NCBI RefSeq assembly: GCF_000372725.1
Contig: NW_005201791.1
Location: 117,788-181,787 of the forward strand
DNA length: 64,000 nucleotides
Source: Emiliania huxleyi CCMP1516
Lineage: Eukaryota
Direction: 5' to 3'
Within the stretch, counting starts at the first letter, position 1. Every line of letters starts with the position of its first letter. The translations under genes and the position numbers were made by a program. This document shows positions 43,365-64,000 of this stretch, piece by piece. A model generated the notes under the pieces. It saw nothing but the letters and a program-made list of their open reading frames with translations. It had not been told where the DNA came from and did no database searches.

Positions 43365-45851
43365 TCACGCCGCCACCGGCAGCCGAACTTCAAACGGCGT
43401 GGCGCGCGACGCGGCGAGCGACGAGAAGGCGTGCTCCCACACGCGTTGGTAGCGCCGCGCCGCGTCCGAGCCATCGGGCAGCAACTCCCCGGGATTGTGC
43501 AGCAAATCGACGATTGCGACGCGAGAGTCCACGACCACCGACGCCCACGCGTGGTGGGCGTGGGCGCCATTCACGCACCTGCCGAGGGAGAGGCCACAGC
43601 CGAGGCCGCAGCTGTCGGCGAGCGCCTTGAAGAGGACGGCACGCGCGCGCGCCCCGCCGCGTGTCAGCGAGCCGAGGGGGAGAACGCGCGAGGCGGCAGC
43701 CTTGCAGAGAGAGGCCGCCTGCGCCGCGCCGTCGAAGGACTCGTACTCCTCGTACGGGACGCTGCCGCCCATCCGGTCGCTCACCAGCACGGCGAGGCCT
43801 CGCACGGTGTCGGCGGCCGAGGCGGCCCGCACTAGGAGCGCCCTAGCCTTGAGCGACTCGAGCGCCGCGTCGGCGCCAGACACGTGGAAGATCGCCGCCG
43901 CCTCGCCCTCGGGCTGCATCGACCGGAGCGCCGCCGCGCCAACCAACGGCACGTCCTTTGGCACGGCGAGGAACTCCTCGCCGAGGGGCACGCCCACGGG
44001 GAGGTGCGAGTTGAGCCACAGCCTGGCCGAGGGCAGCGCAGTGCACACCGCCTGGAGCGCCATGGAGGCAGCGGCAGAGTGTTCGCCCTCAGCCTTGAGC
44101 GCGACCAAGTGCTGCACGGCGCCAAGAGAGACGCAAACCTCGGCCGACGCGGCGTCGCGCCCGTGGCAAGCTGCGGCGATGGCGGCCAGTGCGGCACGAC
44201 GCAGCGGAGCTGACGGGCTCCCGAGCAGCTTGACGACTCCCGTGAGCGGAGGAGGCGCGTTGTCGACGGCGCCGTTATTGTTGCCCCCGCCCTCGCCGCT
44301 GCCCTCGTCCGCGCCGCCGCTATCACTGACGACGCCCTCGCCATCGCCGGAAGCCGCACTCGACCCCAGAGGCGAGCGCAAGAGTCTGCGCACCTCCTCG
44401 TGCGCGGCAAGGGCGGCGAGGGCGTGGAGCGCCGCCTCGACGCGACACTCCTCTGGCTCCGCCTCGCTCGCCGCCTCCGTCTGGCTCGCCGCCTCAGCCT
44501 CGAGCCTTCTCGCGGGCCGGAGCCACTCGGCCAGCGCGACGATGGCTGGCTTCACGACTTCCATGGCTGCGTCACGCCCCTCCTGGCTGCAAGCCACGAG
44601 ACCGAGCGCATCCGCCGCCTTGGCGCGAAGCGGCGGCAGAGTGTCTGCCTCGCACACGAGGGATGCCAACATTTTCAGGCCGGCCGTGCCGTCAGACAAG
44701 AGAGGCTCCAGAGCTGGTGTGGGCAGCAGTGCGACAATTGCCGAGCAAGCAGCTTGCCGCACCGCCTCCCAGTCCGCAGACTCGAACCGTGCTGCAACAG
44801 GCCCAAGGGCTTCAGGGGGCTCAGCAGCGAGGAGCTGGAGGAGCGGGAGGGCAGCTGCTGGCCCGAGCGAATGCGCAATCTGTGGGGATCGCGCGAGGTT
44901 CTCGATGGCAAGGGCTACGTTGGACAGCAACTGTGCGGACGTGTGTGTCGGCTCTTTGAGACACTGGACCAACAGTGGAACCGCGTCCAGACGTTGCAAA
45001 GCCATGCGACCGTCTTCGAAGTTTGCGACAGCGGCCACCAAAGATGCCGCGTTCGCCATCAGGTCAGTGAAATCGGGCGGTGCATCGTCAGAATCTGGGA
45101 GCTGCAGGATGGTAATCACATTGGCGACCATTTTGTGCTCGAGCAACTTGGAGCGCAAGATAGCGTCGGGCAGCGCAGTGGCAAGCGCGAGGTGCGCCTT
45201 TGCTCTGGCTGTAATGGCGTCCGCGCCCTCATCCCCGCCAGGCGCCGCAGCAAGGCGGATCAGACCATCCAGGTCCGCCGTTCGAAGCTGTATGCGTGCC
45301 AGTGCAGAGTTGAGGCATGCCGCGAGCGCCGTTGCGGCTTGAGCTTGCAATGCGGCTGGTGCTTGCTGAGTCAACAACCCGAGCAGTTTTGGCACAGCGC
45401 CTCTGCGAACGCACGCACGGCCCTCCGGTTGCGACGCGATACGGGCTATTGCCGCGCACGCGTGCTGGGCGGCGGCTGCCCGCTGGGACGGATCGGCTGC
45501 GTTTTGCCATTTGCCATCGCGGGGAACGCTGAGCAGATGAATGAGGGACGCCGCCAGCTCTGAGGAGGAGAAGGCGTGAGGCCCATCACGCAGGCACTCG
45601 GCCAGCCGAGAAGTTGCTTCGACCGCGTCCACAAAGGACTGGTCACACTCCTCGGAGGAGAGGCAGCGCGCTGTGGCCGCCACGATGGTGGGCATGTTGC
45701 CGACGATCAGGTCCATTGCATCCTGCCCTGCTCCATCCTCAGCTGCCTGGCGGAGTGCGTCGAGGCCAGCTGCAAGGTCCGCGGCGGAAACCTCGCCGCC
45801 GGACTGAAACAGCTCCAGCGCTGCTTCCGGGGTCGCGGGGCTTGGCGGCAT
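43365..45851 (-). CDS. Armadillo-repeat protein with a C-terminal EDR1-like domain (ARMC3-like); intronless
   Basis: Multiple ARM-like helical repeats, then LVSDRMGG...RVLPLGSL..G..RARAVLFKALAD...HAW...IVDLLHNPGELLP...A.RYQR. Confidence 0.8.
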   Translation of the reverse strand: MPPSPATPEAALELFQSGGEVSAADLAAGLDALRQAAEDGAGQDAMDLIVGNMPTIVAATARCLSSEECDQSFVDAVEATSRLAECLRDGPHAFSSSELAASLIHLLSVPRDGKWQNAADPSQRAAAAQHACAAIARIASQPEGRACVRRGAVPKLLGLLTQQAPAALQAQAATALAACLNSALARIQLRTADLDGLIRLAAAPGGDEGADAITARAKAHLALATALPDAILRSKLLEHKMVANVITILQLPDSDDAPPDFTDLMANAASLVAAVANFEDGRMALQRLDAVPLLVQCLKEPTHTSAQLLSNVALAIENLARSPQIAHSLGPAAALPLLQLLAAEPPEALGPVAARFESADWEAVRQAACSAIVALLPTPALEPLLSDGTAGLKMLASLVCEADTLPPLRAKAADALGLVACSQEGRDAAMEVVKPAIVALAEWLRPARRLEAEAASQTEAASEAEPEECRVEAALHALAALAAHEEVRRLLRSPLGSSAASGDGEGVVSDSGGADEGSGEGGGNNNGAVDNAPPPLTGVVKLLGSPSAPLRRAALAAIAAACHGRDAASAEVCVSLGAVQHLVALKAEGEHSAAASMALQAVCTALPSARLWLNSHLPVGVPLGEEFLAVPKDVPLVGAAALRSMQPEGEAAAIFHVSGADAALESLKARALLVRAASAADTVRGLAVLVSDRMGGSVPYEEYESFDGAAQAASLCKAAASRVLPLGSLTRGGARARAVLFKALADSCGLGCGLSLGRCVNGAHAHHAWASVVVDSRVAIVDLLHNPGELLPDGSDAARRYQRVWEHAFSSLAASRATPFEVRLPVAA

Positions 45852-47018
45852 GGATGCGAAACGGCTGTATACTGTGGCTGGTGGGACGCACGCACGGCTG
45901 GAACTTGCGCCCCCTCTCCTACTGCTCCTGACACCACAACGGGCGAGCGGGTCGGATGCTCGCTCGGCTGCCCGTCGGCCCACCCGCGCTGTCCGTGCCA
46001 GAGGAGCTCTCGGATCTGACCACTCTGACCGAGAGCCTCGTGCGCGCCTCTGCCGCTTGGCGGTCCAGCGGGCAAGGCGGTGCGGCAGCAGACATGTGTA
46101 GGCTGCTTGAGGCCGCAGCGTCGGCGCTGCAGGCGCAGGTGGCAGAGGCAAAGGTGCAGCGAGGGCTGGCGGTGGCATCGCAGACGCTCGCAGCGACCCC
46201 GCACCCCGCGCCTGCCGCCCCTACCGCCCCGCCTAGGTGGGAAAGAGACGAGGAGATGGAACAGCCCGAGGGAAGGAGCACAAACACGTAGACCATGCTA
46301 ACGTCTCACGATCTCACTCGCGATCGAGTAACACCATGTGCACTAAAGCACGACTCCGTTAGCTAACATTCGACAAGGGCCCCACTCTTTCCTTCGCATA
46401 GCGGCCACTCTTCGGATCGCTGGTCGAGCGACCCGGGGGATGCCCCGCGCGCCTGACCCAGGCGCGGAAACGAATCTGCGAGGCGTGGCCGCTCATGCGG
46501 CCCGATGGGGAGGAGGGGAAGACGTAGGGCGTGCTTGCGCGCCTTTCCGAGGCCCCTCCAACCCACCCGCGCTAGTTCTCGGGTTTGACGCATGGGGTCA
46601 CTCCCGCGAAACCCGTGAACTAGCCGGGGCAGTCGGAGAAGGGGCAACTCCGTGCACTGACGGTCGGCCGTCAGAAATCCCGCCTCCGTGGCTCGGGTTA
46701 CACCAATCCTCGCTACCCAACGCGGCCAAAGGATATCCACCTCGAGAACCTCGAGGAGTCCTTTTGGAAAAATTTTGTTGCCATCCCAAACTGTCACTCC
46801 CCTTTCTCCCGGCCGGGGTGGGGCGCGCGCGGGGGCGGCGGGTGTGAGGGATGTCTGTGAGCCCGAGAGCGATATGCCATGTCCGCCTTGCGTGTTTTCA
46901 TAACATCGAAGGCTAAGCTCAAAAATTTTTCGCGGCCGCGCTGAATGGACAATTGACCCAACGTTGACGCGTTGGCACACAGCGCCGACCCTCGGCAGCA
47001 ACTGCTAGCAGAGAAGAC

Positions 47019-50000
47019 ATGCCGCCCGTAGCCCTGCGCGACTACCAGTCCGCAGCTGTGGAGGAAGCCGCCCAGCGGAACCTGCTCGTCGTCCTGCCGA
47101 CGAACGCTGGCAAGACGATCATCTCGGCCAAGGTGATTGAGAACGTCCTCTACGCCGAGAACGAGCGGGGCAGCGGCAAGAAGATTGTCTTCCTCGCGCC
47201 GGGGCGGGCGCTGGCCGTGCAGCAGGCGCGCGTGCTCGAGGAGCAGATCGGGCCGCTGCAGGAGGAGCCGACGAGCGTGGGCGGCGCTGCGTGGCGGCTC
47301 GGCCTGGTTGTCGGCATGGGTGGTCTCGGCCTGCGGGAGGCGGTCCGCTCGCGCCAGGCGCCAGCAACGCCGCCGCGGCGCGACGGGACCACCTCTCCGC
47401 GGCTTCATCTCGGCTGTGCCGCGGCTCTAGGCGCCTGCGACACGCTGCGGCGGTGTGAGGGAAGCAGCACTCTGTTCACGGGTGAAGGCGACGCGCGACA
47501 GGTGCTTGTGATGACGCCGCAGCTCTTCGAGAAGGCGCTCATCCACGCGATGCTGCGGATGGAGGGCGTCGCCCTGCTGGCCACCTCCTGTCGCGCTGCT
47601 GTGAGTGTGAAACCGCCTTCACGGCTCGCGCTGTGAACAGGTCCTCGACGAGGCACACCACATGCGAGGGAACGACCGGTACGCCACCATCATGAAGTAC
47701 TTCTACCTGCCGTGCGGCGAGCGGCCTCGCGTCCTTGCCCTCACCGCCTCGCCGGTCGAGAAGGCGCGAGAGGACGAGCCGGACTGCCGATCAAATTAAC
47801 GACCCCTGAGTTCATGGAGTCCAGTCAACGAGTTAATTGCTCTGACGAGCCCAGTGTAACAAACTAGTCAACTACTGTGACGAGCCGAGTAGAGCACACC
47901 TTCCCTGCGACCACTTCTTTCGTCGGCGCAACAGGACGAGCCGACGCCGCGAGCGACGGACCATGAACAACAAACAACACAGCCCCGCACCCCACTCGCA
48001 GGCGCACATGGTCGAGCCGGACGCTGCCACGTTCCGTACAGAGCTCGCGGAGCTAGAGGGGCGACTCGACTGCGCGGCGTGGTCACGGAGAGTTCCACCC
48101 ACGGTCGCCCCCCCACGCGCTGCCGCGGCGACTCACGAGCAGTTCGCTACGCACACACACTCTTGCCAGCTAGGTCGTCCCGCACGCGCTGCCGCAGCTG
48201 CTGCCCTTCGGCCGCGCTGCAGCGCCGAGCGAGCTGGTCGACGGCGTGAGGCGGGTGCTGGTGTGTGAAAGTAGAGATGGGGCGGGAGGCACGCACGCGC
48301 AGCACACACACTCAGGGGCGAGGGACGGCAGCACAACTCCACTCCGCGGGGCCAGCACGCGCGCGTGGCAAGCCGGCCGGCTGGCACCGACACCCTCCCG
48401 GACCTCCCCATATCTCCCCATATCTCCCCATATCTCCCCATATCACCACGCCGCGGGGCCAGCACGCACGCACGCCCCAAGCTCCTTGGTCGAGCCTTCG
48501 CCAGTTCTCCCACTCAGTGGCGTCACTCAGTGGCGTGCGGCTTGGGCCAACCGAAGGTCGCTCTCCGACCTCGCTCGCCGAGCCTTCAACCCGGCGCAAG
48601 ACGGCCGGAAGAACGCGACCGACACCCCGCCCGGATTTGCAAGCAGGCGCGGGTATGGGACGACGGCACGACGGCGGAGGCGGAGGAAGACATGGCGCCG
48701 CGCCGCAGGGATCGCCGCTCCGTGGAGGTGCGGGACGGCGCGTCTTCACACCAGACGCTGGCTGTGTGCAGGGGCTGCGCGGCGAGGGGGTCACAGGGGC
48801 TGCGCGGGTCACGCCGCAGACGGAGGCGGCGGCGCTGCGGTCTCTTTGCCGTCTCTTTAGGGTGCTCGCCACGGGCTGATCTGCCTTCTAGGCCGCGCTC
48901 GAGGGGAAGGAGGTGGAGGCGCTGCGGGCCGCGTGGGGGCAGTGCGTGGACAAGATCGACTCTATCTGTGGCGGGGGAGAGCTGGGAGGATGGGCGCCCT
49001 AGAAGCGGAGTACGCGCTCTTGTACCAGCGCTCGAGAGGACACGGACTCCGCGGCATCCGTTCGTATTCAACTGTATTCACTGTCCTCTTCTCCGTTGTA
49101 TTCACGCGGTGCTCTGAGGACGCTGCACAAGACCGTCTCCCCGCCCTGAGGTTGGCGTACACTCCGCGTAGGATGGGCGTACTACCACGCCGCGCAGATG
49201 CTCGTGCGAGACTTGGGCAAAGGGACGCGCGCGCTGTCGCCGTGCGAGGAGGGCTGGCCTAGAAGCAGGATGAGGGGGGGTCTCTGTGGAGTCCAGCCGG
49301 CACTCTTGCAGAGGGCACGTGCTCCGCTGCCTCCCGCTCACTCCCCTGGTGTTCGTACTCTCCAGTGGCCGCGTTGTACTCTTCGAGACCTCGAGACCTC
49401 GAGAGAGAGAGAGAGAGAGGCGGCCGCACGCCTCCCCGACCAAAGTCGAGAGTTGACTGTCATCTTTGGCGGGCGACCTGTATTCGTAGCCCCTCGTACT
49501 CACGCGGTGCTCTGAAGCCGCTGCACAGCGCCAGAGTCGATCCGCGTCGGTTGTGGTGTTGACGTGTATCACAGTCCGGCGGGTGTATTCACACGAAGTG
49601 TATTCACACGAAGTGTATTCACACCGCAGGAGAGGGACGAGGCGTGGCCCGCCCGACGCGCAGCCGTCGGCGGCTCCATGGCGCACGCCGAACTCCTGTC
49701 CAAGTGGCGGCGGGAGCTAAAGGAGCGGCTGTCGCGGCTGCGCTGCCCGCCACCGACTGAGCCGGCGAGCGCCTCGCCAAAGCTGCTGGCGCTGGTGCAG
49801 CACTTGCGCGAGACGCGGCCCGCAAAGTGCATCGTCTTCATCACGCGCCGCGCCGCCTGCCGGCTGCTCCACGGATTCCTGTGCGTGGGCCGTCGAAGCT
49901 GAACACGGACTCTTGTATTCCAACTAGCGCTCGAGAGGACACGCATTCCGCTGTACTCGGCCGTACTCGGCTGTGTTCATATCCCTCGTACTCAATCAGT

Positions 50001-53000
50001 GCTCTGAAGACTCTCCACACCGTATTCCCGCCCCGAGGTTGGCGTACTCCGCGCGTAGGAGCGCGGCGCTCGACGTGGGCTGCTGGGAGGTGTGCTGGGC
50101 GTGCCGCGAGGGCCCCGTCGCGATCTCGCGGGGGCGAGGGTCGGAGGGGTATTCGGAGAGGCAGTTTGACGCCGCGCTCGACGCGTTCCGTGGCGAGGCG
50201 GGGCCGGGGCGTCACAAGGCGCTTGTTATAGATAGGTAGAGGGCTCTCGTCTGCACGCATCCCCTCACGGCTAATGACTGCTCCTCCGTAGTCACTCACT
50301 ACGTCAGCACGCCTGCCCTCGGCTAAATGACTGTTCCTCCGTAGTCACTCACCAAATGATGACGACACACCACTATTGCTGACGACACAGCTCGTCTCCA
50401 CCTCACCTCATGTCCTCCTCGTTGATCGTCGCTCACCATATCGCTGCGGCACGAGGTGCTCGTGTGCACGTCTGTGCTCGAGGAGGGGATCGATGTGCCC
50501 TCGTGCGACGCTGTGATCGATTTCGACGGCGCGAGATCCAGCCGAGATCCAGCCGAGATCCAGCCGAGATCCAGCCGAGATCCAGCCGAGATCCAGCCGA
50601 GATCCAGCCGAGATCCAGCCGAGATCCAGCCGAGATCCAGCCGAGACATAGCGTTATCGGTGCGACCACTTGGGGGCGACACCTGTCCAAGAAGGGACGC
50701 CCACGACACGTCCAAGACACGTCCAGGCGCGACCACCTCGCAGCGGCGCCAGCAGCGGATGGGCCGTGCGCGCGCGCAGAACGCGCGGTTCGTCGAGATG
50801 ATCGACTGCAGCGACGAGGGGGAGAGGGCCAAGGCGGAGGCGCGGATCGCGCGCTTGCAGGGGTGGCAGGAGCTCACCGTCAAGGAGCTCGGCGGGGGCG
50901 CGCGGCGGCTTCCCCCGGCGCCGCAGAGTGCGGAGGCCGCCGCTTCGGAGCTGATGAAGAGGGCCATTTGCGCAACCGCGCCCGACGGCCGGCCTTGCGG
51001 TGTGCTGCCGATGGCGAGGAGCAGGGAGCTGCTCGCCGACGTGTACTGCGACTCGCGCTTGGTCCTCGAGGGCGGCGACCCCTAGAAGCGGAAGATGGAC
51101 TCGACTTGTATTCCAACTGGCGCTCGAGAGGGGCATGTAGACTCTACTTGGCTGGTATTCCGCTGTATCCATTGTACTGTATCTGTACCCGCTCGTGCTC
51201 ACGCGGTGCTCGTGACTAGTCCGCAATGCCGTGTTCCCGCCCTGAGAATGGTGGTGGATTCGTCATGTAGGCGGCGACCCCGAGGTCGAGCTCGATTTCA
51301 CCGCCGACGGCAGCCACTTCACCGCTAAGGAGGGCGGGCAGTTCCTCGTTCTGCCGCGGGACGGGACCGGCCCCTTCCGCTGCCAGCTGACTCTGCCGGG
51401 TGTGCTGCTCTGCCGCCCGCCGGGCGAAGGGAGGCTGCCGAAAACGCTTGATTGGACGGACGAGTTCGCCACCAAGGGGGGTGCCAAGGAGCGCGCGGCG
51501 ATGGAGGGCGTCAGGTACTTGCTCAAGATTGGCGTGCTGGACGCGCATTTCGAGATCGTCGGCCGAGCCGCAGCCCTCAGCCAGCTGAGGGAGAGGGCGA
51601 GCGGGCGGCAAGGCAGCACGCGGGCAAACCGGCGCCAGCTGGCCAGTTCGTAGTCGATCGCTATTGCATGACTATTTCCACTGATTTATAGGCGAACCGT
51701 CGCCAGCTCGCCAAGAAGGAGCCTGTCGTGCGCGACTTGCCGGCCTGCTTGTTGCGCCAGGAGCCGGCGGACGCGGAGGCGGAGGGGGAGGCGGAGCGGG
51801 AGGGGCTTTCGGCGGCTCCGTTGGGCGGTGGCGGCGATGGGACGCTGCAGGTCTGGTCACACCCGCTGTTCCTCGACACCGAGCCGACAGGCCTCGCGCT
51901 ACTGCTGCCCGGACCTGTGCCCGAGGCGGCGCGTTCCTTCGCCGTCGGGGCTCAAGGACAGCGCGTCGCGTGCCGGCTGGGCGGACCGCACGCGATGCGT
52001 CTCACGCGTGGCGCGCTTGCGGACGTGGCGCATTGGCTCGTCGGATCGCTTGAGCTTATCCAGGGGGGCTGCGCCGGCGAGCCGTTGCACGCGTCGATCG
52101 GTGCGATGCAGCAGTTGCTGGCTTGGGATCACGTTTCGGGTTCCTTCCGGCCCGACCCACGGCGCATTCTCGACGGCCGGGAGGGGCAACTGCCTGAGCT
52201 GCGCGGTTTCAAGTTCACCAACCGTTGGGTCAAGGATCCTTCCAGCGAGCCGGCTGTATTTGCCGCTCTGGTCCAGGAGATGCTCCTGTTCTACAAGGCG
52301 CCTCTGCCCGTCGTCGTCACTCTCGACCTCGACCAGACTCTGTGGTTTGGTGAGTGCGCCGAGTGGCCGCCGGGCACGTACGAGTCGGGTTCGGCCGCGA
52401 CGGGCGCCTTCCCTCTCCGAATGGTCTCGACGGAGAAGGACGAGACGGGGCGCTACCCTCACCTCGAGCTGCATCGCGACGTGCCTCTGATCTTTGGTGC
52501 GCTGCGCCTTCTCCGCGCCTCTGGCGCCGTCCGCATCGCCATCGCGTCCGCCTCGCCAGCGCGCGGGAGCGCCTTGGCGCTGTTGGAGAAGTTCGGTTTG
52601 ATCGACGGCGAGATGTGGTTGGAGATCGGCGACGGTGACGGCGGCGACGGCAGTGGCGGAGCGACAGCCGAGCCGACGGCACACGGCAAGGTCGGGCATC
52701 TGAGGCGACTGGCGAAGCGGATGGGTGTGCCCGAGGAGGAGGTCCGGGAGCGTTTCGTGCTCTTTGACGACTCCGAGCGGAACGTCGACTCGGTGCGCGA
52801 GGAGGAGCCGGACGGCCTCCACTGCAACGCGCTCGTCCTCGACCCCGCGACGGGGCTGACGGCGGAGGCGGTGGCGCGCGGCCTAGAGCACCATTGCAAA
52901 GAGCTGCAGCGCGAGCGGGAAGACGGCTTCGACGGCAGGCTCACCGAGGCGGAGCGACTAGCGCCCGACCGCGAGCAGCAGCGGAAAATGCGGCAGGACC

Positions 53001-56000
53001 GCCTCGGCAGGAGGGGCGAGAGGCAGGCCGAGGTGGATGGGGGCCGCGCTTCCGACAAGCTGCGCGCCTTGCGCGTGGACCCTGGCTGGTGGGTTGCGGC
53101 GCCGCTCGACGGCGAGGAGGTCAACTGGCGGCTGGTCGAGCTGGCGACCCGCCTATTCAAAACGTGCGAGTGGCCCGGCTGCGGCTCGGACCATCCTCTC
53201 GCTCCGGCCGACGACGACGAGGATGCGGAGTGGGCGTACTGCGCTCTGGCAACTTACGATGCGGAGACGCGCGTGCACTACCAGGTCCTCTCCGAGGTCT
53301 CCTTTTGCCCAGCCGACGGCACGGTGCAAGGCACCGTCCGCACGCGCCAGGCCAAGGTGGCCGAGTCGCCAGCACCCCAGTTCTTAGCGTCCACATTGTG
53401 CATCTACGGGCCCACAGCGCATGCGTTCGTCTCGCTCGGTAGCTTGGCGTCCGTTATGCGTGCCGCTTCTTGAGGACTCGCGCGCGGTACTTACCTCTAG
53501 GTTGCCGAGTCGTCGCGCCGCGCCAACCGCTACGTGTCTCGCGACGGCACCTACGCGACGCGGGAGAGCGGCAGCTAGTGGTCCATGCTTTGTGGTGAAG
53601 GGTTGGGCTACTGCTTCTCAGGCACCTACGCGACGCGGGAGACGGCGAGGGCGACAGGATTCGCGCCCGCCAATGTGCGGCTCCTCCCGCTCCTCTCCTC
53701 GCACCACCGGCCCCTCCGCCTGCTGAAGCGGCTCGTCCACCGCCTTGAGCACCTCGCCCTTGTCGCCGAGCTCGACGGTCTCCGCAGCCTCCCCGCCGCC
53801 GGCCTCGCCGCCGGCCACGGCGAGCCGACACCTCTCTCGTTGCCCGCACGCTGTGGGCGGCGTCTCTTCACACCTCCTGCTGTGAACAGGCCCCTCAGCA
53901 ACGCGCACCTACCCTGCAAGCTGTGGGCAGAGCGCCTTCACGCGCGCACCTGTGAGCAGGCGGCGTCGCCTTCGGCATGCTCGCGGCGGCGCTCACCTCG
54001 CCCGCCGCCAACGCCGAGGCCGCCCTCGCACCAGGGCTTGCCGCTGCTGCTGCCGCTGACGCCGCCGCTGCCGCGCCCGCACCCGGCCGCATGCTGCTCG
54101 ATGCGCGCGGCTGCTGCGACTACGAGGTGGCCGAGTGGGTCGGCGACGCGGTGCTCCGTTTCCTCTCCGTGGCGCACGTGCTGTTTGAGGAGCCGACGGC
54201 GCGCGACACACGCAGCTCCCGCCCGCCGCCCTGTGAACGGCGTCTCTTCACACCTCCGGCCGTGGGCAGGCGCGCGACAAGCAGCTCTCCCTCGCGGCGG
54301 AGCAGATCCTGAGGAACCAGTCGCTGTACGAGAGGGCAAAGGAGAGCCGGCCGAGAGCACTCGCTGCTGTGTGCGTGGGGATGGCCCGCCCTCAGCGAAC
54401 GGCACCACCGGACAGGAGATCCGCCTTCCCGAGCTCGCGCTGTGCCGGCCCTTCGAGGTCTCCGCGACGCTGCCCGAGATGCGCAAGGCAGCGTGCTCGC
54501 TCAAGGACCAGGCCAGCCTCACTGGTCAGTGGGCTCCTCAACTACGAAATGTGGCAACATTCATCCACAATCATGCAACATTGACCTCCATGCCTTGGAG
54601 ATTGTCCGGGGCCCTGAGGCCCAGACAGACAGACAGACTGGGGCCCAGACACACAGACAGCCTGATCAGCCGATGAACTCGTCCGTTCGTTGACTGGTGC
54701 TCGCTCAGGCCAACCTCGTCGAGTCGCTGCTCGGTGGGCTCGCCGAGACGGCGCGGCAGCAGGCGCTGAAGGACGGGCAGGCCGACCCTCTCCGCCGCGC
54801 CCTCGAGGCGGCCTCGCGCCTCTTCAGGGCGGCCGTAGTTCAGTGCGCAGCGAATGAGTGAGGGGCGTCCCTTCCGCAGGCGGCCTCGCACTTCTTCACG
54901 GCGGCGGTGCTGCCGCCGCGGCCGCCGGCTGCTCCTCCGCCTCCTCCGTGGGCGGAGCAGCTGCGGAGGCCCGGCGAGAGGAGGACGCCTCAATGCATTC
55001 ACCAGCCACTCACCTGATGAGTTCATCAATGCCGCGGCCAGGCTCAACGAGAAGATGCCGCCGCCGCAAAGGAGGGGGCGCCAGCCGCCGCCGGACAAGC
55101 AGCTGCAGCAGCAGCTTCAGGAGCAGGCGGCGGCGCTAGTATTGCAATAGTAGCATAGTAAGCGCCTCTTCACGAGGAGCGATTTCATGCCGATAGCCAG
55201 GCTACTAGGCGGGATGAAGCGATGGGCCCAAGGGACTTGCGTGCTGCCCCCCCCCCCCCCCCCCACAAACAAACACGCACACACACACACACACACCGCT
55301 CACCCACGCGCACCGGGCCTTGCACCTTTCATGCCGCGGGGCTCTTGTCTTTTGTACGTGGAGTCGCGACCCTTGCCCCACCACCTTGTGTGTGTGTGGA
55401 GAGAGAGTCACCTTACCTTCCCTTCGAGTGGGGCTATAGGCGGCGGCGCTGTGCTGTGGCCTGGGAAGCGAGCTCGACCTCCACACGGCGTGCCCGGCCC
55501 TGCTGCTCGAAGCCTGCCGCTGGAACGAGCGCGACACCTTCCAGCGACTCGAGTTCGAGGGCGACGCCTTCCTCCAGGAGATCGCCCGAGCTCGCCCGAG
55601 ATCGCCCGAGATCGCCCGAGATCCCCCGAGATTGGCCGAGCTCGCCCGAGGCGCCCCCACCGCGCGCGTCTCTTCACACCCCTTGCTGTGAACAGGCGGC
55701 GGTCTCGCTCGAGCTGGTGGCGCGGTACGAGGGCGACGAGGGCGAGCCGTGCGCGTGAACGGCGCCTCTTCACAGCCTTGAGGGGTGAACAGGTACCCCG
55801 AGTGCGACGAGGGCGAGCTGACCCACCTCCGCTCCTGCCTGGTCAAGAACCTGCACCTCTCCCGCCTGCTGACCCGCCGGTTCGGCGCCGCGCTGGCGCG
55901 CGAGTTTGTGCGCGACGCAAGCGAGGCGCACCGGAGGGCCATCGAGAGCTTCGTCGCCGGCGTGGACACGACCAGCGGCCTGTCCATGCTGGAGGCGCCC

Positions 56001-57524
56001 TTGCTCACGCCTCGGGGGCCAACGGCGAGAGTGCGGCGCCTCTTCACGGCGCCAGCTGTGAACAGGTGCTCACGCTCACGCGGGAGGCCGCCGCCGCAGA
56101 CGCAGCGCCGCCGCCGGCGAGCGCGCCGCGCCACGACAGGAGGGGGCACGACTACCGCAAGCCGCTTGGCGACCAGTACGAGGCGATTGTGGGCTTGGTT
56201 CTGACCGCGCTGCATGGCGACGTCGACCGGACGTGGGCCGTTTTCCGGAGAGACTTCTTCCCGCCCGAGGCGGAGGCGGCGGAGGCGGCCGACGCGGCGG
56301 AGGCGAGAGCGGAGGTGCGGCGGGAGGTGAGGCGGCAGCAGCAGCAGCAGAGGGAGCAAGCCGCAAAGGCAGAGGTGTGCCTGCAGCGGCTTGCCGTCCT
56401 CGCCGCGGCGCCTGCCCCGGCGACGGAAGTGGCAGCGGCGCCGGCAGCGAGGACGGCTGCAGCTTCTGCCGATGCTGACGGCGACGGGTCAGCTGCGGCT
56501 GCGGCCGCCACGCCAGCGGCCGCCACGCCAGCCGCCACGCCAGCCGCCACGCCAGCCACGGTGTTTACCACGCGGTCTGCTGACGAGGAGGCCAGCGAGG
56601 TGTCTTGCATGGAGGCCGAGGCAGCAGCGGCGCCGCAGCAGCGGGCGGCGCACGGCGGCAAGAGGCCGCTGGAGGGGGAGGCGCACGGCGGCAAGAGGCC
56701 GCTGGAGGGGGAGGCGCACGGCGGCAAGAGGCCGCTGGAGGGGGAGGCGCACGGCGGCAAGAGGCCGCTGGAGGGGGAGGCGCACGGCGGCAAGAGGCCG
56801 CTGGAGGGGGAGGCGCACGGCGGCAAGAGGCCGCTGGAGGCGGAGGCGGAGCAGCCGCGGCTCTGCAAGCGGTGCAAGCGCGACGTGGCCGCCTGCACCT
56901 GCCCCACGCAGACGCAGGTTGCACCGCTGCCGGCACCGCCACCTTGGCCGCTACTTCCGTCGGCGCCGTCGTCGTCGGCGTCCGCCTCCGCGGCGGACCC
57001 ACAGGCGACCTCGGCGCTGGCGCTGTCGGCTCTGGCGCCTGCGAGCCGCGGCGGCGGCCAGCTAGACGCCCTCGCGCAGATGTTCCCTCAGTGCGACCGT
57101 GACGTCCTCGCCTCGCTGCTCGCCACCTGCGGCGGGGGGGTCGACAAGGCACGCTCCCCGGATCGCCATCCCTCTCCCCCTACCCTGGATGCGGACCCAG
57201 ATTCTCCCCATCTCTCCCCATCTCTCACCATCTCTCCGCATCTCTCCCCATCTCTCCCCACCTCTCCCCATCCATCTCCCCACATCTCCCCACATCTCCC
57301 CATCTCTCCCCACATCTCCCCACATCTCCCCACGTCTCCCCACGTGAGACGTCTCCCCGCGCGACCCAAAAGCTGCTCTCGAGGCTCTCGAGGTGTGCGG
57401 GGAGAGCTCGCACCGGAACGTTGAAGAAGCGCGTGTAGGCGGCCCAGCAGCTTCTCGAGATGTCGGCCCATGTCTCCTCAGCGCTGCCGCCCAAGGCTTC
57501 CCCGGCGCCGTCGCCGGCACCGGA

Positions 57525-57571
<47 letters not shown>

Positions 57572-57870
57572 TGGCGCTGGCGCACGGGGCGGCCTCGAAC
57601 CCGGTCGGCGCGTTGGAGAGTCTGCTCCGGCAGGATGGCCTAGTACCATACCTCTCGAGTCTCAAACCCAGTGTGGGTTCAGCGCCGTGGGTGGTGCGGT
57701 AGGGGGGCATCGAGCCGTCGCGGTTCTTGCGCGCCGAGGAGTCGCTCGCGTCTCCCTTCTGGTGCGTGGTGCGCGTGGACGGCACGGGCGAGGCGTTGGG
57801 GCGGAGCGGCGGCCATAGCAAGAAGAAGGAGGCGAAGAAGGCGGCGTACCACGACGCGCTCTCGAGCACG
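47019..57870 (+). CDS. DCL: Dicer-like protein: DExH helicase, dimerisation (DUF283-like) domain, HAD phosphatase insert, two RNase III domains, CUE and dsRBD; many introns
   Basis: Helicase: LRDYQ, LPTNAGKT, VMTPQ, VLDEAHH, LALTASP, CIVFITRR, CTSVLEEGIDVPSCD, QRMGRARA. Dimerisation-like: AKERAAMEGVRYLLKIGVLDAHF. RIIIa: YEVAEWVGDAVL (54121) and KDQANLVES. RIIIb: FQRLEFEGDAFL (55539), DEGELTHLRS, KPLGDQYEAIVG. Confidence 0.9.
56648..56838 (+). repeat. In-frame 33-bp tandem repeat, 6 copies, encoding AHGGKRPLEGE
   Basis: Directly visible in the Dicer C-terminal exon. Confidence 0.9.
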
Positions 57871-60800
57871 CGGCTGCGCGAGCTGCTGCAGGAGCGACGC
57901 GCCGCGGTGCAGACCTCCCTCTCCACCGCAGGAGCGGCGGGCGGCGCAGTCGAGCATCGACATCCCGCCGACTCTTTCGCCGGTGGCGCCGCCGGCGGCA
58001 CCACCGCGCTCGCCGCCGCCGGCACCACCGCGCTCGCCGCCGAGGTCCGCAGGGCGGCTCTGCTTGCGGACGTGGAGGGGCTGCGCCAGTTTGCGCTGCG
58101 GCTGCCCGTGTGCGACGGCGGGCGGGCGCTTGGCGTGGAGCTGGGGCAGGGGGGGGTGGAGGCTGCGCTGCGCGGCGAGGGGATCTTCGAGGAGCTCGGC
58201 GAGGGGGAGGGCGGCATGCAGCGCAAGGTGGCCGCCGTCGCAGGCACGGCTCGGCTCGGCCTCCGCTCCCTCTCCCTCCTCGCGCGCAAGGCGGCGGAGC
58301 TCTCGCGCCGCGTACGCCCCTTCCCCCCGCGCCACTCTGCGGGCCGGCTCTTCCTCGGCGCGCTCGAGGCGCTCGCCGACGCGTCGCGCCCGCCGCCGCC
58401 CGCGCCAGCGCTGTGTGTTGGCGACTGCGTGCGGCTCGTCTGCCTGACGAGCGCGCACGGGGCCCCTCTCAACGGCAGCGTCGGAGAGGCGGTCGTGATC
58501 GCGCGAGATTGCCCGAGATCAGCCGAGAGGGCCCCGAGGGTGTAGGCAGAGTCGGGGAGGTGGTCGAGGCGGCTCGAGACCCCGCCTCGCTGCGAGCGGG
58601 GCTGCGCAAGCTCAACTGGGGTGCGCTCAAGGCGGAGGCGGAGGCGGACGGGCTGGCCGAAGCGTCGGTGGACGACGCCGGCAACTCTAGAAGCGGAAGA
58701 CGGACTCTTGTATTCCACCCAGCGCTCGAGAGGACACGCACTCCGCTGTACTCGGCCGCATTCAACTGTATTCGCGCTCTTCGCATCCCTCGTGTTCACG
58801 CGGTGCTCTTCCCCCCCCCGCCGCTCCCCACCACTCCCCTCCCCCTCCTCGCCCACGCCCCTCCTCTCACCGCCGAGTACACTGCATGGTCCTCCCGCCC
58901 CGAGGCTGGTCTGTTCAGGTAAACGCACAACCCCGGGCCCCGAAATCGCACAGTGATGACAGTGACATGCAACACGGGGTCCCAGGGAAGGCGAGCAAAA
59001 ACCTTATCGCGCGCTGTTCAGCACGCAGGCCGCCGACCCAAAGGACGAGCTGATTCGCTTGCTTGTGGCGAGGCGGTCGAGGGTGGGCGTGCGGCTGGCG
59101 ACGGGGGCGCGCAAGGCCGTCCCGCGCTGCAACCTGCAGCTGCTCTGCCTCGGGCACTGCCACCTGGGAGGCATGAGCGAGCCCGCGAGGCTGCTCGCCG
59201 TCTGGCTGCAGATGGCCGGCGGCGACCCGTGCGCGCTGACGCGCTGGCAGTCCAACGGCGTGTTCGACCCGGCGCTGTTTCGGCGCGAGCGCGCGGCGGG
59301 CGAGGGAGGGGAGGGAGAAGGGGCGCCGCCGCCCTCCCTGTCGTCGGTGCACGCTGCTGATGCCGCCGGTGCTAGCTTTGGCTCCCACGTCTGGCTGTGA
59401 ACGGCGTCTCTTCACACCTCTAGCCGTGAACAGGTGGGTGGTGCCGGTGGCGACCGGCAGCTGTGAACAGCGTCTCTTCACACCTCTAGCCGTGAACAGG
59501 TGCGGGCTGGTTCACGCTGTGCATGCTCGAGGCGCACGGCTACGTAGCTCAAGACTTGGTCGCGGCTACGCGCCTCCCCGCGTAGCGGTTCAAGACTTGG
59601 ACCGCTACGCGCCTCCCCGCGTAGCGGTTCAAGACTTGACACGGCCACTGCTGCCCCTCTGACGATTGCACACTTGTCTGTGAGGCCTTTCCCGGAGAAC
59701 GCTCCCACCACCGCCTCGTGTGCAATGCCCCGTGTGTGTGCTCCGCGAGTGCGTGTGCCCCGTCGTCCGTGCTAGGGACGTGTGTGTACCGCTGACTGAC
59801 TGGCAGGTCACGGCCACGCATGTGCGCCCAATCAGGCGCACGGCTACGAGCTCCCCCTCGGCCTGCTCGCCACATACGCCAGGCTGCGCAGGGAGGTCGG
59901 GCCGGAGGGGCGCGGGCTCGACAGCTACGCGGAGCGGCTCGATCTGCTGCGGTCCGCGAGATTGCCCGAGATTGCCCGAGATTGCCCGAGATTGCCCGAG
60001 ATGGCCCGAGATGGCCCGAGATTGCCCGAGGTTGCCCGAGATGGCCCGAGATTGCCCGAGATTGCCCGAGATGGCCCGAGATTGCCCGAGGTTGCCCGAG
60101 ATTGCCCGAGATTGCCCGAGATTGCCCGAGGTCTGCCGCGGCCCACGGGTGCGCCAGGCAGGTGCTGCCTCGACACGCTCCACCATGCATCCACAGCCGC
60201 CGTTGAGAATCGTCTAGGTCCGCCGTGCGCGGAGGTGCCCGCCCTCGAGCTGTGAACAGCGTCTCTTCACGCCTCTAGCCGTGAACAGGTCCGCCGTGCG
60301 CGAGGTGCCCGCCCTCGAGCTGTGAACAGCGTCTCTTCACGCCTCTAGCCGTGAACAGGTCCGCCGTGCGCGAGGTGCCCGCCCTCGAGCTGTGAACAGC
60401 GTCTCTTCACGCCTCTAGCCGTGAACAGGTCCGCCGTGCGCGAGGTGCCCGCCCTCGAGCTGTGAACAGCGTCTCTTCACGCCTCTAGCCGTGAACAGGT
60501 CCGCCGTGCGCGAGGTGCCCGCCCTCGAGCTGTGAACAGCGTCTCTTCACGCCTCTAGCCGTGAACAGGTCCGCCGTGCGCGAGGTGCCCGCCCTCGAGC
60601 TGTGAACAGCGTCTCTTCACGCCTCTAGCCGTGAACAGGTCCGCCGTGCGCGAGGTGCCCGCCCTCGAGCTGTGAACAGCGTCTCTTCACGCCTCTAGCC
60701 GTGAACAGGTCCGCCGTGCGCGAGGTGCCCGCCCTCGAGCTGTGCGGCGCGCACGACGACCGCGTGCGGCGGCGTGTCGACCTGCACGACTCGCCCCCGC

Positions 60801-62316
60801 CGTCGGCGCACCTCGCTGCCGGTGGCGACGGCGACGCAGCCTCCCGCCCCACGGCCCACGCGCGCGCGTTTCTTTTTTACCGCCGGATGTCTGGTTTCTC
60901 TAGCCGACAGCCCGTACAGCCCGGGTGCTGACGACGACGACGACGAGTGCGCTGACGGCGACACCGAGCCGGCCGGCGGCTGGGGCGGCGCCGAGGGCGG
61001 TGGCGAGGCTGGGGGCTTGGGAGCGGCGGAGGAGGAGGCTGCCTCCGCCGCCACCTTCGAGGCGATGCTGCTCCCGTGGGCGGCGGAGGAGGCTCCACGT
61101 GTCGTGGCGCTGCCGCGGCGGATCGACTACCTCAACGTGATAAGCGAGGCGCTCGGAGGGGGCGGCGCGCTCGGCGTGCACGCGCGCTGCGAGGGGCAGG
61201 CGGACCTCGGTGTGGCCTCGCGCCCAACGGCGTCTGTTCACACCTCCGAGCCCTGCCACTGCTGTGAACAGGTGACGCGCCAGCCCATCCTCTACTTTCT
61301 CGTCGGGCCGCGCCTCGCCGGCCGGCGCAACGAGCTCGCCTCGCGCGTCGCTGGCCTCGAGGTGTGCGGCGACGCGCTGCTCGCCGACGCTAGGGTGGTG
61401 CGCGCCGAGGCCGCGCGCCGCGGCGCCGGAGGCGGCGTCGGAGGTGGCGTTGGAGGCAGGGCGCAGCTGTCCCTCCGCTGCGGCGGCGCGGCGCTCTACG
61501 AGTCCTTCCTCGCCCAGCATGGGGCGGGGCTGCTCGGCTTTGTCGTCGGCTGCACGGGCGCGCCGCTGCTCGGGCAGTGGGCCTTGCCTCGCTTCGAGGC
61601 GTGGCCGAGCGAGCGGCCGCCGCAGACTGTGCTGCAGGAGTACCTCGAGCGGCGCGGCTGCTGGTGCAGAGTGCTCTCCGAGCGCGCGTAGTAGTCAACT
61701 ATGAGTCACTAAGAGCGAATCACTAATCAGGTGCAAAGTGCTCTCCGAGCCCGCGTCCCTGCCCGCCGAGCCGGGCCAGCCCCCTCCCGACTTCTTCGTC
61801 GGCCGGTTGGCGACCGACGCGACGCAGGCGGGCCTGGACAACCTCGGGCCATCTCGGGCCACCTCGGGCCACCTCGGGCCATCTCGGGCCATCTCGGGCC
61901 ACCTCGGGCCACTTCGGGCCACCTCGGGCCACCTCGGGCCACTTCGGGCAGCCTCGGGCCACCTCGGGTCACCTCGGGCCAGCTCGGGCCACCTCGGGCC
62001 ACCTCGGGCCACCTGGCCACCTCGGGCCACCTCGGGCCACCTCGGGCCATCTCGGGCCATCTCGGGCCACCTCGGGCAGCCTCGGACCATCATCTCGCGT
62101 GCGCGTCGCAGGCGGGCGTGTTTGTCGGCACGGCGCTGCCGCAGGGCGCGTGGGCGGGGGAGGGCGGCGTGGTTGAGCTGCGGGGCCCTCCGTGCCGCAG
62201 CAAGCGCGAGGCGGAGAGGAGCGTCGCGTACGCGCTGCTGCAGGCCGCGCTGCCGCAAGCGGCAGATTCGCCACCGCCGCCGCTGCTCGTCGAGTCGGTG
62301 ACGCTTCTCACCGCTG

Positions 62317-62361
<45 letters not shown>

Positions 62362-64000
62362 TAGGCGGCGGCGGCGTAGGCGGCGGCGGTGGCGTAGGCG
62401 GCGGCGTGGCGCTCGAGGCGGGAGGCAGCGTCGAGGTGTCCTACACGCTGCAGCTCGAGCCGGACGGCAGCGGCGGCGTCGGCGCGACCCTGGAGGTGCA
62501 GCGGCGGCTCTGCGTCCTGCTTGGCGGCGGACTCCTCCACCCAGAGGTGGAGGGGCTTCTCGCGGATCTGGGGGCGGCGTGGGCAGCGCGCGCCGCCCCC
62601 GCCGGCCCGGAGTCTGCCGCTGGCAGCGGCGAGGCGGCCCTGCATGTCGAGGCGGCTTTGCGTGTGGTCTACCGCGGGAAGCGGCGGCGGTGCAGGCTGT
62701 GGCTGCAGCTGCACTCGGCGACAGCGGCGGAGGAGTTTGAGTGCGTCGCGGCGCGCGACGGCGGGCCATCGCTGGGCGCCCTGCGGATAAACTACGTGTG
62801 CGAGCTGCTGCGCCAGCTGAGCCCGGCCAGCTTGTGCGACGTGGGCTGCGGCGAGGGGCGGGCCGGCACTGCAGCCCTCGTGGGTGGCGTCTCTTCACAG
62901 CTCGAGCCGTGAACAGGCGAGGGGCGGCTGATATGCAGCTTGCTGCGCGGAGGCGGCGCGCCGTCGCTGCGGCGGGTCGTCGCCAACGACGTCAGCGCGC
63001 GCGCGCTGCGTCGCTGCGGCGAGAAGGCGCGCCCCGAGGTGGCCGCGCCGTGCAGGCAGCGCCTCTTCACGCTTCCGGCTGTGAGCAGGTGCGCGCGGCG
63101 CTGGCGGCGCGCGCAGGCGGCGGCGCGCCGTCGGCGGAGCTGGAGTTCGAGTTGCTCTGCTCCCCAGTCTCTGAGCTGCGGCTGGCAGCAGGCTGCGATG
63201 TCCTGACGCTGGTCGAGGTCGTGGAGCACCTCGACCCTCCCGAGCTGCAGCGGCTGGGCGCAGTTCTGCTCGGCCGGTGCCTAATCACTCATTCATGGTG
63301 AGTCCTCAGCAAGTAGCCATAAAATAGGCGCGGCGCTGCTCGGCCGGTGCACATGCACATGTCCGGGACACGTCCGAGCCATGTCCGAGACATGTCGCAT
63401 AGGCGCGGCGCTGCTCGGCCGGTGCGCGCCGCGCGCCCTCATCGTCACCACGCCAAACAAGGAGCACTCGCACCGCCCACCCACCCGCACACGCGCACCG
63501 GGCCTTGCACTTTCAATCCACGCGCGCCGGGCCTTGCACTTTGAATGCCGTGTGCGGCTCCTGTCGCTCACGGGGAGTCGCGAGGGTCGGTTCGGCCCTT
63601 GCCCCACCACCCTCGTTGTGTGTGTGGAGGAGCGTACCTCACACCTTACCTTAGGAGCACAACCTCATATCTCCCCATATCTCCTCATCTCGGTGGGGGA
63701 GATACCTTAGGAGTACAACCTCAACCTGATGGTCACATGCTCGGAGGAGGCGCGCGGAGGCGCCGTTTGCCGCTCTCTCCCCCTATCTCCCCCTATCTCC
63801 CCCTATCTCCCCCTATCTCCCCCTATCTCCCCCTATCTCCGCCTATCTCCCCATACCTCCCCATATCTCCCCATATCTCCCCATACCTCCCCATACCTCC
63901 CCATACCTCCCCATACCTCCCCATATCTCCCCATATCTCCCTATATCTCCCCATGGAGGCGCCGCGTGCCGCGGCCGCGGCGGCGCAGGGCTGACGCTGG
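57595..64000 (+). CDS. HEN1: HEN1-type small-RNA 2'-O-methyltransferase with plant-like domain order; apparently continuous with the Dicer and running off the window
   Basis: dsRBD (GHSKKKEAKKAA); NELASRVAGLEVCGDALLA (plant HEN1 LCD-like); second dsRBD (PPQTVLQEY...SKREAERSVAYALL); FKBP-like VEVSYTL...LHPEVE; methyltransferase motifs PSLGALRINYV, DVGCGEG, EVVEHL and IVTTPNKE|YN. Confidence 0.85.
60219..60744 (+). repeat. 70-bp tandem repeat, about 7.5 copies; each unit is an exon start plus an intron 3' end with AG
   Basis: GCCCTCGAGC recurs at 60241, 60311, 60381, 60451, 60521, 60591, 60661 and 60731. Confidence 0.95.

Follow-up and report, generated by a model that had tools for sequence, protein, structure and literature searches.

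We report that a Dicer gene in a 64,000-nucleotide stretch of the Emiliania huxleyi CCMP1516 genome (contig NW_005201791.1, forward-strand positions 117,788 to 181,787; hereafter the window, whose numbering is used throughout) encodes a predicted HAD-family phosphatase domain which, in structural models, is inserted in the platform, at the RNA-end-binding head of the enzyme. This HAD-bearing Dicer is a real, conserved and apparently undescribed architecture. In full-text searches of the openly accessible literature, we found no phosphatase-containing Dicer and no Dicer-HEN1 fusion. Specifically, the available excerpt of a Dicer domain review (PMC7827160) contains none of the terms 'phosphatase', 'HEN1' and 'haptophyte', and 'phosphatase' is likewise absent from the available excerpt of a small-RNA study of E. 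huxleyi (PMC4839659). In the same excerpt, four partial E. huxleyi DCL models are described, none of them classic, the C-terminal half of the present gene is treated as a stand-alone HEN1 (model 454426), and the preferred Dicer, PID 110711, differs in sequence from this locus (S8/S9). Set against the absence of a classic Dicer there, the present locus is a full-architecture E. huxleyi Dicer.

The HAD domain is encoded within the spliced Dicer transcript

That the HAD domain lies within this Dicer protein is practically certain. In RNA contigs over 50,700-56,640 from four of 13 matching runs (two of the four recorded as RNA and two presumed to be RNA), the spliced joints 51070>51270 and 51622>51691 are found in each of the four. 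Specifically, a single contig, X1 (record 2), covers 51482-51622 together with 51691-53335, contig X6 (record 17) covers 51491-53358, from the dimerisation-domain (DUF283) exon through the HAD exon, and record 6 of X2 links the HAD exon to 53,757 by way of a 46-nt exon (53501-53546), in agreement with a 47-letter gap. Further joints continue across RNase IIIa and RNase IIIb (for the latter, 55723>55792 and 55992>56064). The ten joints that were resolved have GC, GT or GA donors and AG acceptors, and the spliced frame 50727-54990 stays open over 1,074 amino acids (aa). Furthermore, P0077, a 1,325-aa protein from the MMETSP transcriptomes, matches the window exon by exon starting at the ATG at 47,019 and contains DEAD, Helicase_C, a weak Dicer_dimer and Acid_PPase in Pfam scans, uniting start methionine, helicase, DUF283 and HAD in a single transcript-derived protein; an SF2 helicase and DUF283 thus occur in one protein, in P0077 as in the window exons. 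Our own spliced-alignment programme, which always yields an open path and invents introns in insert regions, served as a guide only.

An earlier note on this DNA, made from the sequence alone, had first proposed the domain and had considered that the segment might be spliced out of the mRNA; this fails, the HAD being present in spliced RNA contigs of all four runs. Its location in a long exon of an open reading frame (ORF) at 51728-53473 holds as far as the exon is HAD-bearing, but the exon proper is 51692-53356 and the tail to 53473 is intronic. A HAD domain in an intron or a separate gene is ruled out by the spliced contigs, the open spliced frame and P0077. The broader view, that the locus represents neighbouring genes or an assembly artefact, with HAD and HEN1 each in a gene of its own or HAD in an intron, draws on the splitting of the locus by gene callers, the partial retention of intron 53357-53500 and the ending of several homologues before HEN1; it is extremely improbable, given that the spliced contigs and P0077 link HAD to DUF283, helicase and connector, that HAD is in frame with a Dicer domain in half of the homologue matches, and that three single-ORF fused clusters, together with model 454426, join HEN1 to the rest (see below).

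The intron that follows the HAD exon is covered in three runs by unspliced contigs at a depth of 16-26, versus 26-126 for the exon, and P0077 keeps it and terminates inside. Its retention introduces a stop at 53473, with the loss of RNase IIIa and everything after. The retained-intron product would be a helicase-DUF283-platform-HAD protein without RNase III, and could reflect pre-mRNA or a regulatory isoform.

The domain is MDP-1-like and predicted to be active

As the earlier note had it, four HAD motifs lie in the correct order, and they do so in the single open frame 51692-53473 (Table 1). The DxD, S, K and DD set fits the HAD-superfamily definition in the available part of PMC3607736, in which motif I contributes DxD, motif II S or T, motif III K and motif IV DD, in that order. 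The MDP-1-type pattern that the note had recognised is borne out by a profile match to PF12689 (Acid_PPase; ORF aa 205-403, profile positions 2-168 of 169, E 2.4e-12, 47.5 bits against a gathering cut-off of 27 bits; Pfam) and by structural superposition. The MDP-1 equivalog profile of NCBIfam, TIGR01685, scores 16 bits, below its cut-off of 53.75, and we therefore call the domain MDP-1-like rather than an MDP-1 equivalog.

In an AlphaFold model of the region (22-row alignment, mean pLDDT 79.4), the top six Foldseek matches are MDP-1 structures, with E 1.4e-8 to 4.4e-8. Among 48,161 representative chains, mouse MDP-1 superposes on the model with a VIA Z of 17.2 and a root-mean-square deviation (rmsd) of 2.1 Å over 161 of 162 residues, while the runner-up chain reaches Z 10.8; the Rossmannoid HAD core, model aa 201-406, matches HAD chains with this same best Z. 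Searches of the PDB gave weak MDP-1 matches with the single sequence (E 0.02-0.04) and MDP-1 at E 3.6e-19 and 2.2e-15 with profiles. The domain is complete and without a large cap. It shares with MDP-1 (PF12689; PDB 1u7o, 2wm8) the whole-domain fold, the DxD/S/K/DD residues and the capless build, and differs in being embedded in Dicer rather than stand-alone, in its longer loops, in failing the TIGR01685 cut-off, and in having Ala next to the motif II Ser, where mouse MDP-1 has Arg (ASRT). Judged by residues and fold, it is very probably a catalytically active, Mg2+-dependent phosphatase that works through an aspartyl-phosphate.

The domain is inserted into the platform-PAZ-connector cassette

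First fold searches of the window model returned HAD chains alone, with one domain filling the match list. A model of the homologue P0002 (819 aa, pLDDT 75.8), with its HAD at 347-541 (MDP-1 Z 19.4), reveals the surroundings. Specifically, residues 164-801 superpose on DCL4 (9kby 772-1117; Z 13.8, rmsd 4.3, 253 aa), DCL3 (632-1077; Z 13.3), mouse Dicer (7zpi 750-1077; Z 13.0) and human Dicer (21cn 751-1074; Z 11.2, rmsd 4.0, 224 aa), with rmsd 4.0-5.1 for Z 11.2-13.8 over these cassettes as a whole; the superposition spans the PAZ position, the tool reporting range end points only. The flanks of the HAD thus superpose on the platform-PAZ-connector cassette, indicating that the HAD is an insertion and not a replacement. 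The claim of the earlier note that the HAD lies between the dimerisation domain and RNase IIIa stands, but its placement in lieu of platform-PAZ is ruled out, since the two halves of the cassette flank the HAD in this superposition. According to the available part of PMC7827160, the cassette anchors the substrate end through a 5′ phosphate pocket and a 3′ overhang pocket.

Pfam scans of the window and its homologues gave no PAZ and no platform match, and the PAZ-equivalent stretch of the P0002 model is short and all-beta. Compared with the PAZ structure as generally known, the canonical 3′ pocket would appear to be remodelled. In the helix that follows the HAD, Lys or Arg occupies two adjacent columns in 15 of 15 homologues, making this conserved basic helix a candidate RNA contact.

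The HAD domain is conserved in homologous Dicers and fits a single insertion

A HMMER library search of the HAD region against 1.84 billion representatives gave 20 matches. Acid_PPase is recognised in 19 of these, 17 times above the cut-off, and in ten the ORF also encodes a helicase, Dicer_dimer or RNase III domain. In P0005, P0007 and P0019, domains from the DEAD box through RNase III surround the HAD; most of the remaining homologues are fragments with the same HAD flanks, P0020 is stand-alone and P0021 is unrelated. One Dicer-type homologue comes from the haptophyte Prymnesium polylepis, and the divergent HAD-Dicer homologues have 33-56% identity. The HAD with intact motifs thus recurs in homologous Dicers, as looked for in other haptophytes; being seeded with the HAD, the search cannot show that every haptophyte Dicer has one. 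A word-seeded search with aa 150-420 for longer proteins found none among 7,994 candidates, a blank that the homologues later found by HMMER identify as a limit of sensitivity, and a metagenome scan with P0013 gave one locus (L001, 2,302 bases), which ends before the HAD.

Among 21 Dicer-type rows covering motif I (P0015 and P0016, which start after it, were excluded), DxD is present in 21, the motif III Lys in 19, the motif II Ser in 18 and Asp-Asp in 16, the Lys and Asp-Asp misses being ORFs that end early. The catalytic Asp pair (nucleophile and acid-base), the Lys and the metal-binding Asp-Asp are among the 17 of 208 columns that are invariant in 16 full-length rows. This conservation bears on a role in binding rather than hydrolysis, in which the HAD would be a phosphate-recognising substitute for a degenerate PAZ/5′ pocket, or else a structural passenger. 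With a PAZ-equivalent so short and undetected by Pfam, the enzyme could require another anchor for the RNA end, but a domain that only binds would presumably lose its nucleophile, and we regard such a role as improbable. Between runs, all six substitutions classified within HAD aa 205-407 are synonymous (a tally apart from the triple change considered below), compared with five of nine non-synonymous in the HAD flanks; four indels, of 3, 6, 9 and 12 bases, also separate the runs.

A profile search also gave stand-alone relatives, one of them from Scyphosphaera apsteinii. In a 26-row tree without outgroup, 19 embedded and seven stand-alone domains fall on opposite sides of one branch (100/100), in keeping with an MDP-1-like haptophyte gene having been duplicated and inserted once. 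With such a sister group, and with MDP-1 as the top whole-domain match in structure and sequence, the HAD might have retained an MDP-1-like activity on proteins or small molecules (phosphotyrosine, glycated protein, sugar phosphate), with Dicer or a partner under its control and RNA left untouched; the available part of PMC6694639 links MDP-1 to the repair of glycation. We consider this unlikely, as the domain fails the TIGR01685 cut-off, has Ala in place of the Arg after the motif II Ser and sits in the RNA-end-binding cassette beside the conserved basic helix, and as the retained stand-alone paralogues imply that the housekeeping role is covered elsewhere.

HEN1 is probably the C-terminus of the same protein

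The downstream HEN1 probably belongs to the same polypeptide as Dicer. In three clusters (P0015, P0041 and P0042, with member P0046), HAD, two RNase III domains and HEN1 occur in one ORF. The window is collinear with P0015 from 52,529 to 63,470 (tblastn), and a hand-set model with 29 introns, those beyond 56,066 being predicted, reads from 50,729 to 63,749 as 2,780 aa without a stop. Residues 1589-2780 of this model match P0042 with E 1e-115, the top PDB match of P0042 is Arabidopsis HEN1 (3htx, E 3.2e-21), and the SAM-binding, E-x-x-E-H metal and TTPN-x-E motifs of HEN1 are present in the window model. With 497 aa upstream and about 125 beyond the window, where the last HEN1 exon or exons fall, the protein comes to ~3,400 aa. 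Furthermore, JGI Emihu1 model 454426, as given in the available S15 Fig of PMC4839659, starts at the RNase IIIa signature of this gene, continues with RNase IIIb, dsRBD and methyltransferase, and shows the HEN1 motifs in alignment with Arabidopsis HEN1; it thus independently joins RNase IIIa to HEN1, supporting one gene, and its match to the window also agrees with E. huxleyi as the origin of this DNA. Plant HEN1 (3htx) agrees in its methyltransferase motifs and in the dsRBD-like parts upstream of them but is stand-alone, whereas that of E. huxleyi is likely the C-terminus of Dicer; of the earlier note's separate methylation partner, the HEN1 is there but the separateness probably is not.

Two observations accompany these results. 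In model 454426, the first exon of the RNase IIIb signature (55440-55577) is missing; this omission may explain why the model was not recognised as a Dicer in the portion of PMC4839659 available. In P0060/P0043, P0008/P0044 and P0032/P0045, HAD-bearing N-terminal pieces pair with RNase III-HEN1 pieces on equal-sized contigs (44,455 and 56,085; 14,759 and 15,078; 12,054), hinting at three more intron-split fused genes.

A possible role at RNA ends

Our best explanation of the whole, to which we give not quite an even chance, is a platform-inserted active phosphatase that likely takes a 3′-phosphate off a dsRNA end and is fused to HEN1. The position of the HAD in the end-binding cassette and its likely company with HEN1 point to RNA ends, and an RNA terminal phosphate is, by a slight balance of probability, the substrate; the RNA 3′ end, which accounts for part of that estimate, is by itself possible rather than probable. 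The lack of a large cap in a HAD phosphatase suggests a macromolecular substrate, and 2′-O-methylation by HEN1 requires free 2′- and 3′-OH groups. In outline, a haptophyte gene for stand-alone MDP-1 would have been copied into a platform loop once, and the capless active site would face the RNA end. The HAD would strip the terminal phosphate, with 3′ (or 2′) favoured, from a dsRNA end docking at the Dicer head; the dephosphorylated end would dock, RNase IIIa and IIIb would cut, and the fused dsRBDs would pass the duplex to HEN1 for 2′-O-methylation. It is conceivable, but in our estimate rather less than an even matter, that haptophytes thus possess a one-protein assembly line of ~3,400 aa, in which the helicase loads dsRNA, the HAD heals its end, the RNase III domains dice and HEN1 methylates.

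Several points weigh against this explanation. Dicer cuts leave a 3′-OH, and Dicer's own cuts need no healing. They also leave a 5′-phosphate (bioRxiv 2020.08.03.235143, available part), so that only the original ends of the substrate could need it. The closest solved and sequence relatives of the HAD are MDP-1 proteins and not polynucleotide phosphatases, PNK-type folds ranking far lower (E ~3e-3), and MDP-1 is linked to protein-fructosamine-6-phosphate repair (PMC6694639, in the part available). Between runs, three adjacent bases of the HAD (52522-24) are substituted, turning G278 into N, as in P0061. Regarding HEN1, the RNA contigs reach 56,640, and the junctions from RNase IIIb to HEN1 rest on homology and gene models; the likeness of the predicted introns to the RNA-supported ones is not independent, the introns having been partly chosen by that likeness. 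The full-length HAD-Dicers P0003, P0005, P0007 and P0019 have no HEN1, each terminating behind its dsRBD, whether at an intron or at a genuine stop, and helicase and HEN1 occur together in no single ORF among the homologues.

The HAD fold matches include 4xru_D, a Pnkp1-Rnl-Hen1 chain (E 3.5e-3), and T4 PNK (1ltq, E 2.8e-3); the T4 Pnkp phosphatase is a HAD enzyme, consistent with the latter match. In Pnkp1-Rnl-Hen1, a T4-Pnkp-like phosphatase acts on the 3′ end before Hen1, as stated in the available part of PMC4411300. The earlier note had drawn the bacterial parallel with the caveat of a different phosphatase family, a caveat that applies to Pnkp-Hen1 but not to Pnkp1-Rnl-Hen1. In the latter, as proposed here, a phosphatase passes the 3′ end to Hen1, and the HAD fold match is distant; it differs in comprising three proteins, with kinase and ligase, in repairing ribotoxin cuts, in having no RNase III, and in a PNK-like phosphatase, against the MDP-1-like HAD of Dicer. 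Neither window pieces nor fused homologues gave a kinase or ligase domain in Pfam scans, so that only the phosphatase-to-methyltransferase logic is shared with Pnkp/Pnkp1-Hen1 repair.

The 5′ end offers another reading, in which the HAD is a built-in analogue of PIR-1 that converts the 5′-triphosphate of dsRNA, viral or made by an RNA-dependent RNA polymerase (RdRP), to a 5′-monophosphate at the 5′ pocket for Argonaute loading. MDP-1-type enzymes are known for monoesters, which argues against it. The C. elegans PIR-1 of the DCR-1/ERI complex is likewise a phosphatase of RNA in physical association with Dicer, a polyphosphatase needed for Dicer-dependent 26G RNAs (bioRxiv 2020.08.03.235143, available part); the platform that holds the HAD is the site of the 5′ phosphate pocket (PMC7827160), and E. 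huxleyi possesses RdRP (PMC4839659), each as far as the accessible text goes. PIR-1, however, is a separate polypeptide and a DUSP11-family cysteine phosphatase acting on 5′-triphosphate, not a HAD, and has no HEN1 link, and the HAD would have to halt at the monophosphate. We therefore think a PIR-1-like role decidedly unlikely.

With this locus, a single gene suffices to test RNA interference in a major alga that forms blooms and is controlled by viruses. The locus also shows that a catalytic insertion can be accommodated in the end-binding platform of Dicer and retained in divergent homologues. It puts a natural single-chain Dicer-HEN1 on offer, if the likely fusion holds, and gives HAD enzymology a concrete context for testing an MDP-1-type domain on RNA ends. 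Should the assembly-line reading prove true, the protein would be without precedent both as a Dicer with two additional catalytic domains and as an MDP-1-type enzyme acting on nucleic acid; these algae would possibly be able to dice broken, phosphate-ended viral or stress RNA, and the intron-retained helicase-DUF283-HAD form could serve as a non-cutting regulator.

Gene layout and neighbouring features

The order of helicase, DUF283, platform-PAZ-connector, RNase IIIa, RNase IIIb and dsRBD is that of canonical Dicers and plant DCLs (human, DCL1/3/4; Table 1). The gene differs from these in the ~200-aa HAD and linker inside the platform, in a PAZ-like part that is short, all-beta and below Pfam detection, in the likely C-terminal HEN1, and in RNase IIIa. 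Specifically, the catalytic residues of RNase IIIb are complete (E-x-x-GD, D-x-x-E), whereas RNase IIIa has its E, D and E, but Asn at the third acidic site (54712-54714), which is Asp in 11 of 11 homologues with the motif; this may weaken one-strand cutting in this species.

Table 1. Parts of the E. huxleyi Dicer gene in the window, in window coordinates
Feature	Position	Strand	Basis
DEAD/HELICc helicase exons, start codon 47019	47019..51071	+	Pfam DEAD, ResIII, Helicase_C; P0077 exon mapping
Dimerisation-domain (DUF283) exon	51271..51623	+	Pfam Dicer_dimer E 8e-4; RNA joints
Long exon with N-half of platform, HAD insert, basic helix, C-strand of platform and beginning of PAZ-like barrel	51692..53356	+	RNA contigs
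Platform N-terminal half, beta hairpins and helix	51842..52063	+	model aa 51-124; P0002 equivalent; alignment
MDP-1-like HAD phosphatase domain (predicted)	52304..52900	+	PF12689, MDP-1 superposition, motif tallies
Motif I, VVTLDLDQTLW	52313-52345	+	open frame 51692-53473
Motif II, IAIASAS	52535-52555	+	open frame 51692-53473
Motif III, GKVGHL	52685-52702	+	open frame 51692-53473
Motif IV, VLFDDSERN	52757-52783	+	open frame 51692-53473
HAD catalytic residues	D212 52325-27, D214 52331-33, S286 52547-49, K333 52688-90, D359/D360 52766-71	+	
Post-HAD long helix, conserved R-K pair	52970..53068	+	model helix aa 427-459; homologue alignment
Platform C-terminal strand, shortened all-beta PAZ-like region, connector helix	53087..53790 (exons 53087-53356, 53501-53546, 53622 onward)	+	P0002 model 597-755
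Intron, partly retained	53357..53500	+	unspliced contigs; P0077
RNase IIIa exons	53960..54807	+	E-x-x-E-W-x-G-D 54124-54147; A-N-x-x-E 54709-54723; RNA joints, open frame, homologue motifs
RNase IIIb exons	55440..56260	+	Pfam Ribonuclease_3 E 0.003; RNA joints; tblastn with homologues
CUE-like domain split by intron 57149-57438, then dsRBD	57059..57870	+	Pfam CUE E 0.033, DMA E 0.0016, dsrm E 0.12; collinear with P0015/P0042
Conserved linker domains, dsRBD to methyltransferase	57900..62800	+	tblastn collinearity with P0015, P0042, P0043; also in fused homologues
HEN1-type 2′-O-methyltransferase (SAM motif, EVVEH metal motif, TTPNKEYN)	62800..63749	+	P0042-3htx match; JGI 454426

Between RNase IIIb and the dsRBD lie the intron-split CUE-like ubiquitin-binding domain (57059-57460) and a coding 33-bp repeat of 6.6 copies (56632-56848), both with no counterpart in the Pfam scans of the homologues. 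Across 47000-64000, the majority of introns have GC or GA donors and open with a near copy of the start of the next exon: in 23 of 29, at least six of ten bases match, against a background of 6.5%, a comparison that is partly circular for the predicted introns. Introns near 49,000, 49,900, 51,080 and 58,690 have related internal sequence, suggesting an intron-generating element. At 60216-60744, a 70-bp unit is repeated 7.5 times, each copy consisting of an intron end and the first bases of the next exon; the final copy alone runs on into coding sequence, and the array is either a true tandem duplication or an assembly error. On the reverse strand, ~0.8 kb from the Dicer start, a divergent open frame of 951 codons (43365-46220) is apparently rich in helical repeats.

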